64,000 nt of DNA, taken from the NCBI GenBank assembly GCA_002421965.1, contig DISN01000005.1, positions 324 through 64,323 of the forward strand. Direction: 5' to 3'. Below the pieces are notes generated by a model. It saw nothing but the letters and a program-made list of their open reading frames with translations, did no database searches and was not told the DNA's origin. Numbering within the stretch: the stretch's first letter is position 1; each line of letters opens with the position of its first letter. Of the stretch, positions 29,037 through 53,158 are shown piece by piece. This DNA comes from Candidatus Saccharibacteria bacterium UBA6209. Lineage in GTDB: Bacteria > Patescibacteriota > Saccharimonadia > Saccharimonadales > Saccharimonadaceae. Made by a program: the position numbers and the translations under genes.

Positions 29037-29070
29037 AAAATACCCCCATCTGTCGATGAGGGGATTTTTT
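29036..29070. terminator. Bidirectional terminator-like hairpin
   Basis: A-tract, CCCCCATC-TGTC-GATGAGGGG, T-tract. Confidence 0.75.
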
Positions 29071-29205
29071 TGGTTGCGGGGGTAGGATTATCGACTAAAG
29101 CCTCCTCCGCTTGCTTGATAGAAAAATACCTTCGGTGCTTTTCTATCTGCGCCACGCTTCGCGAACCTACGACTACGACAAGCGAAGCTTGTCTGTCGTA
29201 TGTTC
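29071..29205 (-). repeat. 3' shadow copy of tRNA-fMet with T-loop insert
   Basis: 19-bp copy of the tRNA 3' end (29071-29089), 73-nt insert, direct T-arm half (29163-29173), inverted T-arm half (29195-29205). Confidence 0.85.
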
Positions 29206-29219
29206 AGCCTCACAAGCCA

Positions 29220-29255
29220 AGAAGAAAGCCCATCCTTGCGGACGGGCATTCTTCT
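29220..29255 (-). terminator. Terminator downstream of tRNA-fMet
   Basis: Minus strand GCCCGTCC-GCAA-GGATGGGC-TTTCTTCT. Confidence 0.75.
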
Positions 29256-29332
29256 TGGTTGCGGGGGTAGGATTTGAACCTACGACCTTTTGGTTATGAG
29301 CCAAACGAGCTACCGGGCTGCTCTACCCCGCG
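29256..29332 (-). tRNA. tRNA-fMet (CAT), initiator
   Basis: 77-nt cloverleaf with encoded CCA; C1:A72 mismatch; CGCGGGG acceptor stem; CTCATAA loop. Confidence 0.95.
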
Positions 29333-29368
29333 ATAAATATTGTTGTGCCTCGGTATTCTTTGCGTCGC

Positions 29369-29438
29369 CATAACCAATGGTTATGAGCTAATTGATCGAA
29401 GGGAGCTACCGGGCTGCTCTACCCCGCGATAAATATTG
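29369..29438 (-). repeat. 5' shadow copy of tRNA-fMet
   Basis: 29403-29438 is identical to 29307-29342 (36 bp); CATAACCA-A-TGGTTATG is an inverted plus direct anticodon-arm fragment. Confidence 0.85.
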
Positions 29439-29513
29439 CGTGACATTACGCCTAAACTCATGACACATGAATTATATTACTACACTTTACGCCTGTTGGC
29501 AATGGTTGCCCGG

Positions 29514-29984
29514 CTATTTTCCGCCAAATAGGAATTTAGCCCATTGTTTGAGGTTGCTCTCGTCTACGACTGCAGTAGCTACGTCGTCGGTAGTATCTTT
29601 GCTCGTAACAGTTGAGGGTACTATTAGCGCATGCTCGCCAGGCATGCCCTTGCCAAGTCGTTCACGCACAGCAAGTTCTTGGTATTCTAGGGTTGTGTAG
29701 AATTTGCCCTCTAGCTGCAGGTTATCTACTCGTAGCTTTTCCAGCTCAACCTGTCGACGCTTGGCATCAACCGACTGCTGTAGTTCGTAGTTTTGCTGCA
29801 TAACCTCTATAGAGCTCCATGTCCAGCTAAAGGCAATCAGTAGAGCACAGGCAATGACGACATTGTTGACCGTCAAATAATCCCGATGGAGTCGATAAAA
29901 AAGGCGTTTTGACTGAGTTTGGATTTTGTCGAGCATGGTGTTTGTTGTGTGGTTATCTACTGCTATTTTATCATAAAAACTCAT
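29514..29984 (-). CDS. Septum formation initiator (FtsB/DivIC-like) protein
   Basis: One TM, coiled coil, ELAVRERLGKGMPGE resembles the E-x-x-AR-x-x-LG-x-x-x-PGE motif; true start may be ATG 29936. Confidence 0.75.
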   Translation of the reverse strand: MSFYDKIAVDNHTTNTMLDKIQTQSKRLFYRLHRDYLTVNNVVIACALLIAFSWTWSSIEVMQQNYELQQSVDAKRRQVELEKLRVDNLQLEGKFYTTLEYQELAVRERLGKGMPGEHALIVPSTVTSKDTTDDVATAVVDESNLKQWAKFLFGGK

Positions 29985-30007
29985 GGTTGTAACGGGCGAC
30001 AGTAGGC

Positions 30008-30044
30008 ACGCTATATCTGGTGTACATACGCTACATATAGCGTA
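30008..30044. repeat. Palindromic intergenic repeat, copy 2
   Basis: ACGCTATATCT (30008-30018) and TACGCTACATATAGCGTA (30027-30044), as at 14127-14158. Confidence 0.75.
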
Positions 30045-30107
30045 GCCCCGTAGTTAGCAAAGAGTCCTGACAAATAAAATCGACGGAGATTCCGCCGAAA
30101 ATATAAG

Positions 30108-30242
30108 CTTGGTGGGGGTGGCTGGGATTGGCGTAGCCGAACGAAAATACCTGAAAGCTTGCTTTCGGGTATTAAGGAGGCGGAGGAGCGAAGCGATACA
30201 ATAGCGACAGGATGTCTGAAAGACAGCCGTAGTCGCTGGTTC
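30108..30242 (-). repeat. 3' shadow copy of tRNA-Ile2 with T-loop insert
   Basis: 23-bp copy (30108-30130 = 30292-30314), 68-nt insert, AGCGAC direct fragment, inverted T-arm GTCGCTGGTTC (30232-30242). Confidence 0.85.
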
Positions 30243-30293
30243 TGGAGGTCTATATATGTTTGGTGGCCACAGAGTGACTAGAAAATAAATTCT

Positions 30294-30369
30294 TGGTGGG
30301 GGTGGCTGGGATTGAACCAGCGACCAACAGGTTATGAGCCCGCTGCTCTGACCGCTGAGCTACACCCCC
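30294..30369 (-). tRNA. tRNA-CAT, most likely Ile2 (lysidine-modified)
   Basis: 76-nt cloverleaf with CCA; paired G1-C72; variable loop/T-arm resemble Ile2 tRNAs; tilS is nearby. Ile2 versus Met identity is inferred. Confidence 0.88.
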
Positions 30370-30400
30370 ATCAGAGGCAATTATACCCTAAATGACGAAA

Positions 30401-31774
30401 TTATAGAAGCTTGCCGGCGGCAATTCTAATAGTTTCTGACCAAGATGTGAATTCGTGTGGGGTCGAGAATAAATCTTCGGCGCTTAGTCCATGGCGGATG
30501 GCGATAGCAAGTTCGTGGATCATCTCGCTAGCATTTGGTGCGACAATCGCCGCTCCGAGTAGAGTTCCTTTTTTGTCGGATATCAATTTGACCATGCCAA
30601 TCCTGTCGTCGGTTATGTTGCTGCGAGGGGCGATGGTTATGGGCACGACTGCTCGATTTATCTTGAGGTCTCGGCGTATGCAGTCGTCCTCGGATAGGCC
30701 AACACGGGCAATTTCCGGCACCGATCGGATAACTTGCAGTGGCATATGCTTGTCAATCACTGAAAACTTAGTGTGCAATAGGTTGTGCGCCGCTACTCGG
30801 CTGTGCATTAGAATCTCATGAGTCGCAGCCCCTGGGTGTACGCAAGATCCTGCCGCAAAGATGTGCTTAGAAGAAGTCTGAAGGCTGGCGTTTACCTTGA
30901 TACCCTGGGAGTTGTAGGCGACCCCGGCGTTTTCAAGGCCGATATCGGTGGCTGGTGCTCGGCGGTCGGCGATCATTAGCGCGTCAACCTTGATAGTACG
31001 CTCAACTCCAGCTCGAACAAAGGTAATTCGTCGGTAGATACCTTCTTTTTGGACGGCTACAATTTTAGTGTTTGGCATGATAGTCATACCGCGTTGCTTG
31101 GTGAGCTGGCTGCCGATCATCTCGGATACGTCTTCGTCTTGATCTGGCATAATACGAGTTGCTGAATCAGCCAAGTAGACTTTTGTCCCAAAAATCGACA
31201 TCAGGTTAGCAACTTCAATAGCCTCCGGAGTGGAGCCGATAATAAATAGCGTCTTGGGTGGGCGAGTGAGGGTTAATGTATCTTTAGGCGTAAAGTATGG
31301 AGTTTCGGCAATTCCTGGAATGTCTGGAATCTCCCATGTTGTGCCAGTTGCAATTAAGAATTTGCGTGCAGATAGGTGGCGTCGATTGATGCTAATTTCG
31401 TTAGGGCTTAAGAAATGAGCAGTACCGTTAAAAGTGCTAATTGACTGCTTCTCGTAGTAACGGCGATTGCCGGCGGCACCGGTGCGTTTTACGACGGTGT
31501 CGCGCCAGAGAAGAATTGATGGGTAATTATAGCCAATTGCTGCAGTGCGCAATCCAAAGTTGGCGGCTTTTTTGGCGTTGTCATAGGTATTGGCGACATT
31601 TATCATTGCGCCGAGTGGGACTTCGCCCCAGTTTGGAGATTCGCCGCCAAATTCATCTTGTTCGATGATGGCGACTTTTTTGCCGGCCCGTGCGGCCATG
31701 GACGCAGCTGGACTACCGCCAGCCCCGCTACCGATGATGATTATGTCATAGTCAAATGTTGGTTTTTGTGCCAT
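30401..31774 (-). CDS. Class I pyridine nucleotide-disulfide oxidoreductase homologue, degenerate
   Basis: GSGAGG FAD motif, LIATG, interface domain; redox CxxxxC replaced by SPNWGE. Confidence 0.85.
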   Translation of the reverse strand: MAQKPTFDYDIIIIGSGAGGSPAASMAARAGKKVAIIEQDEFGGESPNWGEVPLGAMINVANTYDNAKKAANFGLRTAAIGYNYPSILLWRDTVVKRTGAAGNRRYYEKQSISTFNGTAHFLSPNEISINRRHLSARKFLIATGTTWEIPDIPGIAETPYFTPKDTLTLTRPPKTLFIIGSTPEAIEVANLMSIFGTKVYLADSATRIMPDQDEDVSEMIGSQLTKQRGMTIMPNTKIVAVQKEGIYRRITFVRAGVERTIKVDALMIADRRAPATDIGLENAGVAYNSQGIKVNASLQTSSKHIFAAGSCVHPGAATHEILMHSRVAAHNLLHTKFSVIDKHMPLQVIRSVPEIARVGLSEDDCIRRDLKINRAVVPITIAPRSNITDDRIGMVKLISDKKGTLLGAAIVAPNASEMIHELAIAIRHGLSAEDLFSTPHEFTSWSETIRIAAGKLL

Positions 31775-31783
31775 GTCTGCCCC

Positions 31784-32068
31784 CTATATTACCGTTAACT
31801 GTTGTTTGTATAGATATGCCGCCTCTGGATGGTATTTTGTCAGCAGTTTGGCGCCAACTCGTCGGATATCGTCGGTGGTTATTTCTTGTTTGCTCTCGGC
31901 CCATTTGGCTACACCTGCGGCGACACTTTTGGCGATATCTTCGGCTTGGCCATCGGGTGTCTTGAGGCTGCGACAGGTGGCAATCAGACTCTTCTGTAGT
32001 TTGTCGATATCGAAATACTCAGTCTTTTTGGTGTTGTGTGACTTAATAACAATTACTGGCTCGCTCAT
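31784..32068 (-). CDS. Stand-alone ATP-cone domain protein
   Basis: VIKSHNTKKTEYFDIDKLQKSL and ITTDDIRRVG match the ATP-cone pattern. Confidence 0.8.
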   Translation of the reverse strand: MSEPVIVIKSHNTKKTEYFDIDKLQKSLIATCRSLKTPDGQAEDIAKSVAAGVAKWAESKQEITTDDIRRVGAKLLTKYHPEAAYLYKQQLTVI

Positions 32069-32799
32069 TAGAACACCCCGTACACGCTAATACCAAGCAG
32101 ACGATCGACGAACAGATATGCTGCTAGAATAATTAGGCTGCCGCCAGCAATGAACTGGATAAACCGCTTGTGCTTCTCACGCCATTTTTGAATTTTTGCT
32201 ACACTATGGCCGCCACCAACAAGGGTAAATACTACCAATAGCGGCAGGGCAGATACGATGATATAGATGATTAGCCCAGAGAGCTGCCACCAGACGGTCG
32301 GCAGGGTGACAATTGCGAGAGCTGCGGCGATCATTGGACCGATAATAAATAGCAGTTCGGCAAAAACACCAGTAAGTCCCAGTCCAAAGGCTTCGGCTGA
32401 GTTTTTGGTTTGCTTGGTACGAGTATTTAGATATCTGGCAAAGTTTCGTGGTAGCCATAGCGAGGTGCCGCCACCTCGTCGGTAGTAAAATGCCCAAGTG
32501 GCTATTCCGAGACCGATCATTAATCCACTGGCAATTGCCGCAACAAGTTGCTCGGAGCTTGTCGAGAAATTGATTTTGAGTATCAAGAGGTAAGATAGGG
32601 AGGCAAGCAACAATGCGGTTGCAACGATAGACCCGTTGATAAAGCTTCCCATGAGCCGGAGGACTTTTCTGTGTGCGGTTTTGCGGCCAAGCGAATGTCC
32701 GCTAAGCATAGTCAGTACACTTACGCTAAGCTGAAAACTTGCATGGATAATTGCTGCAAATGTGATAATGGCGAAAGATGAGACAATAACAGGGGTCAT
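32068..32799 (-). CDS. Polytopic membrane hypothetical protein
   Basis: About six TM segments; translationally coupled to the ATP-cone gene. Confidence 0.75.
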   Translation of the reverse strand: MTPVIVSSFAIITFAAIIHASFQLSVSVLTMLSGHSLGRKTAHRKVLRLMGSFINGSIVATALLLASLSYLLILKINFSTSSEQLVAAIASGLMIGLGIATWAFYYRRGGGTSLWLPRNFARYLNTRTKQTKNSAEAFGLGLTGVFAELLFIIGPMIAAALAIVTLPTVWWQLSGLIIYIIVSALPLLVVFTLVGGGHSVAKIQKWREKHKRFIQFIAGGSLIILAAYLFVDRLLGISVYGVF

Positions 32800-32892
32800 G
32801 TTTATTTATAATTTCCTGTCTATAGTGTACCATAAGCAGGATAATTGAGCAAAAATAAACCATCTATTTTTGGGCTCTGCTCAGGGTGTTTT

Positions 32893-33441
32893 TTAGCGAT
32901 TTATTTCCCATAGCTCATCAATCCAGCGATAGCCCTCGTGGGTAAGTCCGGCGTCGTCTAGACCAAAGCCCACTAGCCAGCTATCGCCGGCGTCAAAGCA
33001 GTAGTAGTCTGCCTCGGATTGGCGTTCGGGGACTGTTTTGGTGGCAAAAACTGCTAACTTGACGTCGGCAGCACCACGATCCTCGATGACTTTTTTGATG
33101 AAGTCTGAAGTGATGCCTTGGTCAATGAAGTCATCTAGGATAATGACCTGGCGACCCTCAATTTTGGTGTTTGGTGCAACATCGGTCACAATGACAGGCT
33201 GTTTGGCAGTGTGATCCTCGCCATAGGTGCTGACAATCATGTATTCGAGCTCTGGGTGGTAGTCTTGTTTGACCTTAGTCAGGGCAAACATTAGGCGGCT
33301 AGCAAAAGGTCCAGCACCGCGGAGTAGAGCGATAAATAGCGGTGGCTTATCTGGGTAATCACGAATAATCTCTTGGGCTAGCTGGTCGACCAGCTGATTT
33401 ATTTGTTCACTTGAGGCTAATTTTGTGTATCGTTCTAACAT
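32893..33441 (-). CDS. hpt: Hypoxanthine/purine phosphoribosyltransferase
   Basis: LLRGA, IILDDFIDQGIT PRPP loop, VGFGLD motifs. Confidence 0.85.
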   Translation of the reverse strand: MLERYTKLASSEQINQLVDQLAQEIIRDYPDKPPLFIALLRGAGPFASRLMFALTKVKQDYHPELEYMIVSTYGEDHTAKQPVIVTDVAPNTKIEGRQVIILDDFIDQGITSDFIKKVIEDRGAADVKLAVFATKTVPERQSEADYYCFDAGDSWLVGFGLDDAGLTHEGYRWIDELWEINR

Positions 33442-33508
33442 TTAGCTAGTATAGCGAATGACTGGGTGCTGGCAAAGTGCGGGCTATATGACTGGTCATC
33501 TTGTGCTT

Positions 33509-33624
33509 GTAGCACCGAAAAGGATTGGCGTAGTGCCGCGCAGAAAAGAAAGCACCCTTTGGGGTATTTTTTTAAGCAAACGGAGGAGCGAAGCGATACT
33601 CGGGACCTCAAGGCTCACAAGTTC
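33509..33624 (-). repeat. 3' shadow copy of tRNA-Met with T-loop insert
   Basis: 18/19 match to the tRNA 3' end (33509-33527), 71-nt insert, GACCTCA direct fragment, inverted T-arm TCACAAGTTC (33615-33624). Confidence 0.85.
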
Positions 33625-33675: not shown

Positions 33676-33752
33676 TGGTAGCACCGACAAGGATTGAACT
33701 TGTGACCTCAGGCTTATGAGTCCTGCGCTCTAACCAGCTGAGCTACGGTGCC
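33676..33752 (-). tRNA. tRNA-Met (CAT), most likely elongator
   Basis: 77-nt cloverleaf with CCA; G1:U72 pair; CTCATAA loop. Confidence 0.88.
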
Positions 33753-33796
33753 ATATATAGTGTTTTGTGAAAGGTGCCTGGCTATCGCTTTGATGA

Positions 33797-33872
33797 CAGC
33801 TGGTTGGAGCTTCTGCGCTATTATCTCGCTCAGGGCTGTCCAGCTAATCTACGGTGCCATATATAGTGTTTT
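33797..33872 (-). repeat. 5' shadow copy of tRNA-Met
   Basis: 33849-33872 is identical to 33743-33766 (24 bp); inverted D-arm CAGCTGGTTGGAGC at 33797-33810. Confidence 0.82.
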
Positions 33873-52921: not shown

Positions 52922-52972
52922 AAGAAAAAACCTCACCTTTTGGTGGGGATTTTTCTTTAGCATTGGTTGTTG

Positions 52973-53123
52973 GCTTGAACGCCGTTGACACCCGTAGGTG
53001 GAATGGGTGAGGACTGCCGGTGGCAGTCCGCAAGGAAACCTTCCGATGCGGTCTGTGATCGCAATCGTGAAGTTTCGGGGTCGCGGGACGTGACCAAGCC
53101 CCATCGGACCCTCCAAAGAAAAA
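52973..53123 (+). repeat. 3' shadow copy of tRNA-Lys
   Basis: Inverted T-arm GCTTGAAC...TGACACCC (52973-52993), hairpin-rich insert, 53095-53123 identical to 52901-52929 (29 bp). Confidence 0.87.
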
Positions 53124-53158
53124 GACCCATCACAGTATATGGGTCTTTTTCTTTGGAG
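53111..53158. terminator. 20-bp perfect hairpin/terminator
   Basis: CTCCAAAGAAAAAGACCCAT-CACAGTAT-ATGGGTCTTTTTCTTTGGAG. Confidence 0.8.

Follow-up and report, generated by a model that had tools for sequence, protein, structure and literature searches.

A hairpin cassette in tRNA-derived shadow units of a Nanosynbacter-like Saccharibacteria genome

Described systems and how the cassette compares

REP/REPIN elements with RAYT (TnpA-REP), or REPtrons, are short non-coding imperfect palindromes which are extragenic, multi-copy and found in both orientations. They carry a GTAG tag, and mismatches in their stem are required for RAYT activity (PMC8266576); some REPs are located inside larger palindromes for which the unoccupied form was not found (PMC3733652). 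The window analyzed here, a stretch of 64,000 nt from Candidatus Saccharibacteria bacterium UBA6209 (contig DISN01000005.1), contains three copies of a hairpin cassette which shares these general properties, including what may be a G-T-A-G-type tag 5' of the structure, and a conserved stem irregularity, and RAYT-like genes occur in sister genomes. The cassette differs in that it is present in about a dozen copies per genome rather than being spread through intergenic regions at high copy number, in its size (70–85 nt), in its three hairpins and conserved linker of purines, and in that every copy resides in tRNA-derived sequence. The REP tag (GTAG or CGTC) is positioned directly at the foot of the palindrome, whereas the cassette tag is variable and 10 nt off. 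Moreover, the RAYT-like genes of the sister genomes are flanked by other palindromes, and the present assembly lacks a RAYT. The cassette is also not a typical MITE, having neither terminal inverted repeats nor a target-site duplication.

Miniature palindrome-associated elements derived from IS200/IS605 (PATEs), which move as single strands by "peel and paste," have hairpins near both ends and insert 3' of a fixed target word, on either strand and without duplication. The cassette looks similar in these respects, with TT[C/G](G) as its target word, but its ends are only putative cleavage sites, a TnpA or TnpB partner was not found, and it is embedded in a larger unit which is built from the target gene. 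These larger units in turn resemble integrative elements that target tRNA genes: in both, the tRNA 3' end is directly repeated from the T loop onwards, both form tandem arrays, and in one case a unit has replaced the gene end together with its terminator. The units differ in being only 110–190 bp long without genes or an integrase, in using one module for many tRNA identities, and in that the crossover point holds an antisense T-arm copy and a hairpin cassette. Rickettsia palindromic elements (RPE), like other MITEs found within genes, RNA genes among them, are also small palindromes that are tolerated at set positions of structured genes in reduced, host-dependent bacteria; RPEs enter working genes, whereas the cassette is found only in redundant partial copies. 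Archaeal non-canonical tRNA introns and split tRNA genes also feature T-loop interruptions and half-gene pieces. Here, however, the organism is a bacterium, there is no bulge-helix-bulge, and the interrupted copies are unneeded beside intact genes. No description of the arrangement reported below was found in the literature, and a hairpin cassette within duplicated tRNA ends does not seem to have been described so far.

Cassette copies and shadow units in the window

The cassette is a discrete non-coding module with defined ends. A head (GGCG[T/A]AGCG) is followed by a 13-bp covarying A/T-rich hairpin, a linker (AAGCAAGCGGAGGAG) which is purine-rich, conserved, and single-stranded, a small 3' hairpin, and a GATA tail. 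The head contains a G-N-A-G tag, about 10 nt away from the main stem, which reads GTAG in many copies and GAAG, GCAG, or GGAG in others. The stem keeps its irregularity (G.T plus C/A), and GNA triloops are present in the cassette hairpins. The hairpin noticed in a first-pass annotation of the window is backed by covariation, with 94% of the stem cells pairing and double changes at 11 of the 13 pairs. Isolated cassettes do not fold better than shuffled sequences (z = −1.6, −1.4, and −0.15). The cassette ends (GGCG... and ...CGATA) have no inverted-repeat relation, and its borders show no target duplication; instead, 1–3 T-loop bases are absent.

A covariance model (CM R1), made from seven cassette copies, detects copy 1 (29090..29162, minus strand) with 86 bits (E about 3e-18), copy 2 (30130..30199, plus strand) with 38 bits, and copy 3 (33527..33599, plus strand) with 72 bits. 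All three inserts are present where the first-pass annotation had placed them, and the one that it considered reversed is indeed the same module on the other strand. The 18-mer CGGAGGAGCGAAGCGATA, which was noticed to terminate copies 2 and 3, has exactly two occurrences in the window (30181..30198 and 33581..33598), while none is expected according to 100 shuffles with two mismatches allowed. The suggested circular permutation of copy 1 has to be abandoned, because all copies align end to end and are collinear: the 5' end of copy 1 (GCGAAGCG) is a normal head, a variant of GGCGTAGCG, and its 3' end (GGCTTTAGTCGATA) is a normal tail, a variant of GCGAAGCGATA. A 39-nt core of copy 1 is identical to that of the copy at tRNA-Glu(ctc), with differing flanks.

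The cassette turned out to be one module of a larger composite unit that had escaped the first-pass annotation. Read in tRNA sense, a 3' unit consists of an antisense T-arm strand, a small hairpin (CTTTTGC-N-GCAAAAG) that is conserved over unrelated tRNA loci and over genomes, a sense T-arm strand up to TTC, the cassette, and the final ca 20 nt of the tRNA with CCA. In the three window units, the last 19–21 nt of the adjoining tRNA-CAU recur 147–164 nt downstream, the split being between T-loop positions 56 and 57. The "tRNA shadows" of the first-pass annotation are thus partial copies that do have a T-loop insert; they are not whole tRNAs but consist of a T arm and a 3' acceptor strand alone. 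In a scan against Rfam 15, even at lax stringency (E up to 5), the intact tRNAs matched and the units matched nothing.

The first tRNA-CAU gene (29256..29332, minus strand; ARAGORN; Rfam tRNA, 66 bits) has a C1/A72 mismatch and looks like an initiator type, with a strong likeness to E. coli tRNA-fMet. A terminator hairpin (29217..29258, minus strand), whose stem takes in the CCA, is located directly behind it. This terminator is lineage-specific, and relatives have another one at that spot. The left part of the 3' unit (29163..29218, minus strand) reads, in tRNA sense, GGCTTGTGAGGCT, GAACATACGAC (antisense of the T-arm 5' strand plus TTC), the small hairpin GACAAGCTTCGCTTGTC, and GTCGTAGGTTC (the sense T-arm 5' strand plus TTC). 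Cassette copy 1 follows in tRNA sense, and then the 3' shadow AATCCTACCCCCGCAACCA (29071..29089, minus strand), which is identical to the tRNA 3' end at 19 of 19 positions, CCA included. The terminator behind this shadow (29043..29062, minus strand) resembles the one located directly behind the same tRNA in relatives (L062) and is therefore considered the ancestral one. On its other side, the tRNA gene has a 5' shadow unit (29333..29428, minus strand) composed of tRNA[1–26], a 14-nt insert, tRNA[32–42], an inverted copy thereof, and a leader repeat.

The second tRNA-CAU gene (30294..30369, minus strand; ARAGORN, Rfam), possibly tRNA-Ile2 by likeness, is followed by a spacer, an antisense T-arm strand (GAACCAGCGAC), a small hairpin, and a worn sense strand (TCGCTATTG), which together span 30200..30293 (minus strand). 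Cassette copy 2, antisense to the tRNA, precedes the 3' shadow AATCCCAGCCACCCCCACCA (30110..30129, minus strand; 21/21 identical to the tRNA) and a terminator at 30080–30098. There is no terminator between this tRNA and its unit, which indicates that the unit is probably transcribed.

The third tRNA-CAU gene (33676..33752, minus strand; elongator-Met-like; ARAGORN, Rfam) has its own terminator, which comparison with a relative (L106) identifies as the ancestral one. Its unit retains the antisense arm GAACTTGTGAGCCTTGAGGTCCCGA (33600..33624, minus strand) and has lost the sense T-arm strand; cassette copy 3 is antisense to the tRNA. The 3' shadow AATCCTTTTCGGTGCTACAA (33507..33526, minus strand) has two changes compared to the tRNA, including CCA to CAA, and is therefore decaying. 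In the 5' shadow unit of this gene (33753..33858, minus strand), the D loop is interrupted by an insert (ACAGCCCTGAGCG...) and the D arm is also present as an antisense copy; a relative (L106) has a homologous unit. A further 3' unit in the window, that of tRNA-Lys(ttt) (52922..53158, plus strand), has the same architecture with a different and longer T-loop insert.

Distribution in the genome and the genus

The 705-kb genome contains at least 12 cassette copies (nhmmer, E<0.01), all inside tRNA-derived shadow units. The phenomenon is thus not confined to the three shadows initially reported, nor to tRNA-CAU genes. Ten of the 12 copies are no more than 400 nt away from a tRNA gene, although just 4.2% of the genome falls within that distance; the remaining two belong to orphan tRNA-like units. 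Shadows accompany 15 of the 39 tRNA genes, and most 3' shadow copies carry the cassette; units with an empty T loop were not seen. The cassette may therefore belong to the process that forms a unit, instead of entering it afterwards. At nine tRNAs, the units are bounded by direct repeats of the tRNA 3' part (19–21 nt, 95–100% identical). Only worn ends are seen in the units of tRNA-Glu and tRNA-Asp, and the C18 end is worn as well; together with the CCA to CAA change described above, this decay indicates that the tRNA-like parts are not under selection. In 9 of 11 units (ties counted), the antisense arm has its own tRNA as best match. Tandem arrays occur at tRNA-Gln(ttg) (two units) and tRNA-Leu(cag) (2–3 units). 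The 5' units are also built of sense plus antisense pieces.

In every case, the cassette occupies a TT[C/G](G)^AA site within tRNA-like sequence, usually the T loop (TTC|AA). One copy is located in the D loop of the tRNA-Ser(cga) 5' shadow, and the anticodon loop of the tRNA-Ser(tga) 5' shadow holds a short variant that has the head, both at TTG^AA. The early description of a small unit at tRNA-like sequences is thus partly supported. Both orientations were confirmed (30 copies, of which 26 are in sense and 4 in antisense); an invertible unit is not supported, as flanking inverted repeats beyond the T stem were not found and polymorphism was not seen. Near tRNAs, a short head motif was observed 8 times with 3.4 expected, a weak enrichment.

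The search for further copies by covariance model, as proposed at the outset, yielded many. The genus survey comprises 30 copies in 6 of 121 genomes, with 1–10 copies per genome, all in tRNA-derived units and many at contig ends; the remaining genomes lack the cassette. The occupied tRNA loci differ from genome to genome and include those for Val, Arg, Ser, Lys, Pro, Asn, Tyr/Thr, Asp, and Gln; in the present genome, the majority of these tRNAs are without a unit. In relatives, the orthologous tRNA loci are empty, all three tRNAs being present without units, which rules out an ancient duplication of the tRNA-CAU region, an origin that the initial proposal had named as refuting it. A 3' shadow at tRNA-CAU was found at none of 120 genes (54 other Saccharibacteria loci). 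The restriction of the cassette to six genomes, where it occurs at other tRNAs, and the lack of such shadows indicate that the units are recent insertions. Sub-families of the cassette group partly by genome and across different tRNAs: the G067 copies at Arg-tcg and Pro and two others are 0.83–0.87 alike, and the G058 copy at Ser-cga clusters with Arg-cct copies. The closest copies are 0.80–0.87 alike, except for two tRNA-Glu copies at paralogous loci (0.96), and there is thus no sign of current activity. The cassette is a genuine repeat that exists in multiple copies, is restricted to one lineage, and has spread across different tRNA loci.

Possible origins and implications

Our preferred, still tentative, reading takes the cassette for a REP/MITE-like DNA repeat, short, palindromic, and non-coding, which can enter TT[C/G](G)^AA sites in both orientations and most likely spread as selfish, or at least self-propagating, DNA. 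The head tag, the imperfect palindrome with its conserved irregularity, and the GNA triloops are REP-like traits. Shadow units would have been added behind tRNA genes in one sub-lineage of this Nanosynbacter-like genus, with the cassette as one module of these composites, and copies would be made at the DNA level, either by transposition of folded single-stranded DNA or by gene conversion between units. Because insertion into single essential tRNA genes would presumably be lethal, copies would survive only in the dispensable partial copy supplied by the unit.

A candidate enzyme is a RAYT-like HUH (Y1) nuclease, which is encoded in four of the five other cassette genomes (G067, G058, G050, and G008). 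RAYT-like genes occur in 4 of the 6 cassette genomes and in 2 of the 115 others (hypergeometric estimate about 3e-5, which ignores phylogeny), and this co-occurrence may simply reflect shared ancestry. In these four genomes, the genes are flanked by their own short palindromes (only 3–4 copies each), which are absent from the present genome, and CM searches revealed no cassette beside them. The present assembly (93% complete) has no Y1 and no IS110 gene, and no transposase gene is located in or beside any cassette copy; without the candidate nuclease, the present copies would be fossils. Other enzymes were considered and mostly rejected. An IS110/bridge-RNA system is contradicted by the lack of IS110 genes in eight genomes and by sense and antisense pieces that cover the same tRNA segment, not adjacent ones. 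An integrase origin is at odds with the single tyrosine recombinase, which is Xer-type and located away from the units, and a GIY-YIG homing cassette with the sole small GIY-YIG gene (94 aa, contig C2, about 52.7 kb), which is far from any tRNA. Snap-back cDNA of a tRNA 3' half made by reverse transcriptase is conceivable but not supported: both reverse transcriptases are of DGR type and are accompanied by Avd-like and target genes, no antisense acceptor arm is seen in the youngest units (Leu), and the small hairpin is common to loci.

Strong covariation and a conserved purine motif that is single-stranded would be no less expected of a functional RNA. The whole unit might be a structured RNA, a tRNA-tailored three-way junction whose arms are the antisense/sense T-arm helix (P1) capped by the small hairpin, the cassette hairpin, and the tRNA 3' end with CCA. 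It would arise as a tRNA 3' trailer or from its own start and could be a decoy or regulator for a factor that reads tRNA 3' ends, for example a toxin, the CCA-adding enzyme, or an enzyme of processing. P1 and its capping hairpin are kept with differing sequences in orthologous units of G000 and G067, whole units fold better than shuffles (z = −4.1 for unit 1 and −2.7 for unit 2), terminators are found at unit ends, and the fit of antisense arms to their own tRNAs points the same way. We nevertheless consider an RNA function unlikely, since the two cassette orientations turn the conserved single-stranded motif into its own complement, nearly all relatives lack units, carriers differ in the tRNA loci used, the tRNA-like ends are decaying, isolated cassettes fold like shuffles, and there is no Rfam match. 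Outside one conserved column, G.U pairs and A.C mismatches are equally frequent (5 vs. 5), a count that does not separate RNA from DNA, and palindromic DNA can stay complementary without an RNA role. T-loop introns of split or intron-bearing tRNA genes, removed as RNA, would explain inserts at position 56/57, a known non-canonical intron site in some archaea. This is extremely improbable, because the shadows lack the 5' two-thirds of the tRNA (acceptor 5' strand, D arm, and anticodon arm), an intact high-scoring gene with the same anticodon adjoins each of them, the cassette occurs in both orientations, and the ends decay.

Among DNA-level alternatives, the units could be footprints of small integrative or homing cassettes that entered at the tRNA 3' end and brought a replacement gene end; the gene for their enzyme (an integrase, a serine recombinase, or a mini GIY-YIG nuclease) would later have been lost, with the hairpin cassette as surviving end module. 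The flanking tRNA 3'-end direct repeats are reminiscent of attL/attR, tandem arrays exist, and at tRNA no. 1 the position of the ancestral terminator behind the shadow indicates that the insert brought along the functional 3' end together with its terminator. At tRNA no. 3, however, the geometry is opposite, with the ancestral terminator behind the real tRNA; units of all six cassette genomes lack ORFs, the GIY-YIG and Xer-type genes offer no link, one module at 15 or more tRNA identities would need a recombinase that reads the universal T loop alone, and a decayed gene does not leave a covarying hairpin, all of which makes this origin quite unlikely. We give even less credence to replication errors in a repair-poor genome, with template switching at tRNA and terminator hairpins generating sense-antisense-sense partial triplications (tandem inversion duplications) and shared sequence spreading by gene conversion only. 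The order of tRNA, antisense arm, and sense shadow fits, as does a first junction at the terminator palindrome with a stem including CCA/TGG, the mixed build of the 5' units, and the similarity of the tandem 108-nt and 128-nt arrays to slippage products. Against this, the small hairpin and the cassette are conserved over unrelated loci and genomes and so were not locally made, the insertion point and cassette ends are fixed, and dozens of independent loci in one sub-lineage call for a specific agent.

Beyond the preferred REP/MITE-like reading of the cassette, the units as a whole might belong to an undescribed class of gene-less elements which are tailored to single tRNAs, carry interchangeable hairpin modules, and are perhaps widespread in Patescibacteria, an idea that we regard as rather doubtful. 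The sense and antisense copies of the host T arm and 3' end would then be a built-in address for installation behind that tRNA, as DNA or via an RNA or single-strand intermediate, and the cassette would be the conserved core that serves an enzyme, of the host or acting in trans, for catalysis or recognition.

The T loop is the most conserved sequence in biology, and tRNA genes are single-copy and essential in this 0.7-Mb genome; yet more than a third of them are flanked by partial copies of themselves. That most 3' copies carry the same module points to an active, specific, and non-lethal process that targets the T loop. Such shadows can cause errors in tRNA annotation and in genomic-island prediction. 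If the process acts at the RNA level, the units would represent a new family of tRNA-mimicking RNAs. If it acts at the DNA level, it would add a new target and a new composite architecture to the REP/MITE-like repeats of reduced symbiont genomes and would account for assembly breaks at tRNA loci.

The composite unit behind the tRNA genes

The window corresponds to C5:324-64323 of the assembly, which comprises 704,560 bases in 26 contigs (C2, C5, etc.), has a GC content of 47%, and is estimated to be 93% complete. Relatives, as identified via a neighbouring gene, are Candidatus Saccharibacteria and Nanosynbacter MAGs and oral taxon 488. According to ARAGORN, the assembly has 39 tRNA genes, and CCA is encoded in every one. 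The window has three tRNA-CAU genes, all on its minus strand (no. 1, 29256-29332; no. 2, 30294-30369; no. 3, 33676-33752); their identities are presumed from likeness to E. coli sequences. In tRNA sense, the last 19-21 nt of each gene (T-loop 3' part, T-stem 3' strand, acceptor 3' strand, and CCA) recur 147-164 nt downstream. These shadows (partial tRNA copies) match the end of their own tRNA at 19/19, 21/21, and 18/19 positions for nos. 1, 2, and 3, respectively.

As reported in the first-pass annotation, inserts of ca. 70 nt, here called cassettes, are found at the three shadows, each directly 5' of the shadow (copy 1, 29090-29162; copy 2, 30130-30199; copy 3, 33527-33599). Their common 18-mer is an exact match which is not expected by chance, and copy 1 is indeed the same module on the strand opposite to that of copies 2 and 3. 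It had also been considered circularly permuted, but is collinear with the others, GCGAAGCG being the usual head and GGCTTTAGTCGATA the usual tail.

The cassette is a module within a larger unit. In tRNA sense, the DNA behind the tRNA starts in most cases with a terminator, followed by a spacer, an antisense arm (GAAC, then the T-stem 5' strand and variable-loop bases in reverse complement), a small hairpin common to loci and genomes (consensus CTTTTGC-N3-6-GCAAAAG), the sense T-stem 5' strand with TTC, the cassette, (A)ATCC... with the acceptor 3' strand and CCA, and a terminator. The antisense arm fits best to its own tRNA in 9 of 11 units (ties counted); it pairs with the sense strand to give a stem (P1), with the small hairpin as its cap. 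Taken whole, units 1 and 2 fold well (z = -4.1 and -2.7), and unit 3 is worn (z = +1.2). Among the units, none was found with an unoccupied T loop. The gap from unit no. 2 to the next gene holds a palindrome (ACGCTATATCTGGTGTA / TACGCTACATATAGCGT, 30008-30043), and a similar motif, ACGCTATATATAGCGT, is found behind tRNA-Met of a relative (locus L065).

Shadows upstream of tRNAs are similarly built from the tRNA 5' part, a D-loop or anticodon-arm insert, an antisense copy, and a repeated leader. These 5' units predate the 3' units, as homologous ones occur in relatives at ca. 70% protein identity (loci L062, L069, L106). They have recurrent inserts of their own (window 29333-29428 and 33753-33858; C20:74010-74269, C9:50510-50638, C2:31548-31730, C20:10379-10580). 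One such insert, CTGTCCGAG..., is found at Lys, Gln-ctg, Thr-tgt, and Gln-ttg (there as ctgtttgag), another, AGCCCT[C/G]AGCG, at Met3 (tRNA-CAU no. 3) and Arg-cct. Upstream of tRNA-Thr(tgt), at C19 ~640-700, the 5' shadow contains a run of N straight after a CTGTCC insert head.

Anatomy and folding of the cassette

The order of cassette elements was read from an alignment of 30 copies. The head, (TTC)GGCG-N-AGCG, is a G-C/C-G mini-stem round a GNA triloop. It is followed by a short spacer, a 13-bp stem of mostly A-T pairs with the tip GCACC-GNA-GGTA, C-AAGCAAGCGGAGGAG, a small variable 3' hairpin (e.g. GC-GAA-GC, GGC-TTTA-GCC, or GGCC-ACATGT-GGCC), and the tail GATA. A G.T pair beside a C/A mismatch is found in the main stem in 24 of the 30 copies. 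Pairing in this stem holds in 94% of cells, with changes on both sides in 11 of 13 pairs, which is far above shuffled and slid controls, with the caveat that the model had been used to fit the alignment. Folded on their own, the three window cassettes are barely more stable than shuffles (z = -1.6, -1.4, and -0.15), so the evidence for the hairpin is comparative, not thermodynamic. The main hairpin (33553-33566 in the window, and in other cassettes) consists of an A-tract, a short G+C tip, and a T-tract, in the style of the bidirectional tRNA terminators of this genome; a terminator scan called copy 3 terminator-like on the tRNA strand.

Distribution, target site, and turnover

Units are found downstream of 11 tRNAs (three Met, Lys-ttt, Ser-tga, Gln-ttg, Gln-ctg, Leu-cag, Glu-ctc, Glu-ttc, and Asp), with tandem arrangements at Gln-ttg (two units) and Leu-cag (two to three of 108 nt), and upstream of ca. 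10; 15 of the 39 tRNAs have a shadow of any kind. A search of the genome with nhmmer returned 12 cassettes at E<0.01, ten of them less than 400 nt from a tRNA gene, a zone covering 4.2% of the genome. The remaining two, on contigs C18 and C16, reside in tRNA-like units that are orphans. At C18:8100-8420 (L018), a Gln-type shadow, terminator, unit, and shadow lie within other DNA, with no intact tRNA. The unit at C16:10600-10900 (L013), also with no intact tRNA, is preceded by a sequence of ca. 110 nt that ends ...GGTTCGATAACC...CGACCA plus a terminator and has no Rfam family match; ARAGORN found no tmRNA in the assembly. In the tandem array behind tRNA-Leu(cag) (C20:1917-2250, L017), no terminators separate the units, and the T-loop insert is shorter, its reverse complement starting with the cassette-like head GGGCGTAAAGCG.

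A cassette is also found in the D loop of the tRNA-Ser(cga) 5' shadow (GGTTG^AAC), and a short variant with the cassette head in the anticodon loop of the tRNA-Ser(tga) 5' shadow (CTTG^AAAA). The word common to all sites is TT[C/G](G)^AA, on either strand. Since TTCGAA of the T loop is palindromic, both orientations occur on one phosphodiester (56/57 +/- one).

At tRNA no. 1, the terminator past the shadow resembles that behind the same tRNA in relatives; what was added here is thus the unit together with a new 3' end and a new terminator. At no. 3, the working tRNA is itself followed by the ancestral terminator, with unit and shadow beyond. For Ser-tga, the terminator is duplicated as well. 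A single geometry of gene-end replacement does not fit all loci. Repeated 3' ends were probably reshuffled by recombination among themselves. Decay is seen in several shadows (CCA to CAA in Met3; worn ends at Glu, Asp, and C18), and this speaks against the tRNA-like end being under selection.

When 121 genomes of the genus were scanned with a covariance model of the cassette, under Infernal's stricter filters and so possibly overlooking divergent cassettes, six were positive; these may form one clade and so are not necessarily independent. Our genome has 10 copies by this model, and genomes G067, G050, G058, G008, and G052 have 9, 5, 3, 2, and 1, often less than 250 nt from a contig end. The other genomes carry the same kind of unit at other tRNAs (Val-gac, Arg-cct, Arg-tcg, Ser-gct, Ser-cga, Lys-ctt, Pro-tgg, Asn, Tyr/Thr, Asp, and Gln). 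Relative to the tRNA, 26 of 30 copies are in sense and four in antisense orientation; G050 has the Val unit cassette in sense, G008 and G058 in antisense orientation. Cassettes pair by locus across genomes (Arg-cct of G050/G067, 0.87; Gln-ctg of G000/G067, 0.77) and by genome across loci (four G067 copies, 0.83-0.87), and the Ser-cga cassette of G058 pairs with Arg-cct copies. In our own genome, a 39-nt core is identical between the Met1 and Glu-ctc cassettes, in units that otherwise differ.

In relatives, the orthologous tRNAs have a terminator or the next gene directly behind them. A 3' shadow was absent from all 120 tRNA-CAU genes of 54 other Saccharibacteria loci, and a single gene had a 5' shadow. 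Together, these comparisons indicate that the units are lineage-specific gains at many independent loci. Relics of a single old duplication are rejected, as orthologous tRNAs of relatives lack units.

Candidate enzymes and nature of the cassette

The assembly encodes one tyrosine recombinase (Xer type), two DGR-type reverse transcriptases accompanied by accessory and target genes, UvrC, and a single GIY-YIG protein of 94 aa, which is distant from all tRNAs; neither IS110 nor Y1 HUH genes were found in it. The reverse transcriptases (C23:1400-3900, L024; C19:46400-47500, L025) have a IGNLTSQIFANIYL motif, and that on C23 adjoins an Avd-like 118-aa gene and a lectin/FGE-fold target gene. The GIY-YIG gene (C2:52400-52940, L140) adjoins a tandem repeat of ca. 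45 nt, one frame of which reads RNDTLRLWI[S/P]D.

Among the 121 genomes, a Y1 protein of ca. 205 aa is encoded in G008, G050, G058, G067, G016, and G099, i.e. in 4 of 6 cassette genomes versus 2 of 115 others. Its best NCBIfam match is "REP-associated tyrosine transposase", at 45.7 bits, below the cut-off of 80. We regard the association with the cassette as a lead, which is confounded by shared ancestry. In the four cassette genomes (L056-L059), these RAYT-like genes are single-copy, located among housekeeping genes (thyA/folA/dcd, alaS, ruvAB), and each flanked by a pair of short inverted palindromes. This is the layout of a REPtron, but the palindromes are not the cassette; they have only 3-4 copies and are absent from our genome. 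That of G067, GTGAAGGTTCAACCTTCAC, resembles a tRNA T arm, a suggestive likeness, though one seen in this case only.

The cassette behaves as a discrete DNA module, with fixed ends, a fixed target word, and either orientation, and also with patchy multi-copy distribution, locus turnover, sub-families common to unrelated tRNA loci, and decaying host units. Published REP sequences, on which HUH nucleases act in the form of folded single strands, carry a tag as well as single-stranded parts that are strand-specific, have an irregular stem, and lie inside palindromes never found empty (PMC8266576, PMC3733652). The features of the cassette are similar to these traits.

That the units are structured RNAs is unlikely in our view; covariation in the cassette stem, probable co-transcription of unit 2, retention of the small hairpin and P1, and the occupied T loop of every unit would fit such a role, and a REP/MITE-like repeat does not explain the origin of the unit itself. 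Footprints of gene-carrying integrative or homing cassettes are still less probable, and products of template switching the least; each explains parts of the picture but leaves the shared modules and the absence of genes unaccounted for.

Based on the behaviour as a DNA module and the likeness to REP traits, we therefore tentatively favour a REP/MITE-like repeat. Insertions of such a repeat in single essential tRNA genes would be lethal, so that copies would be visible only in redundant tRNA pieces.
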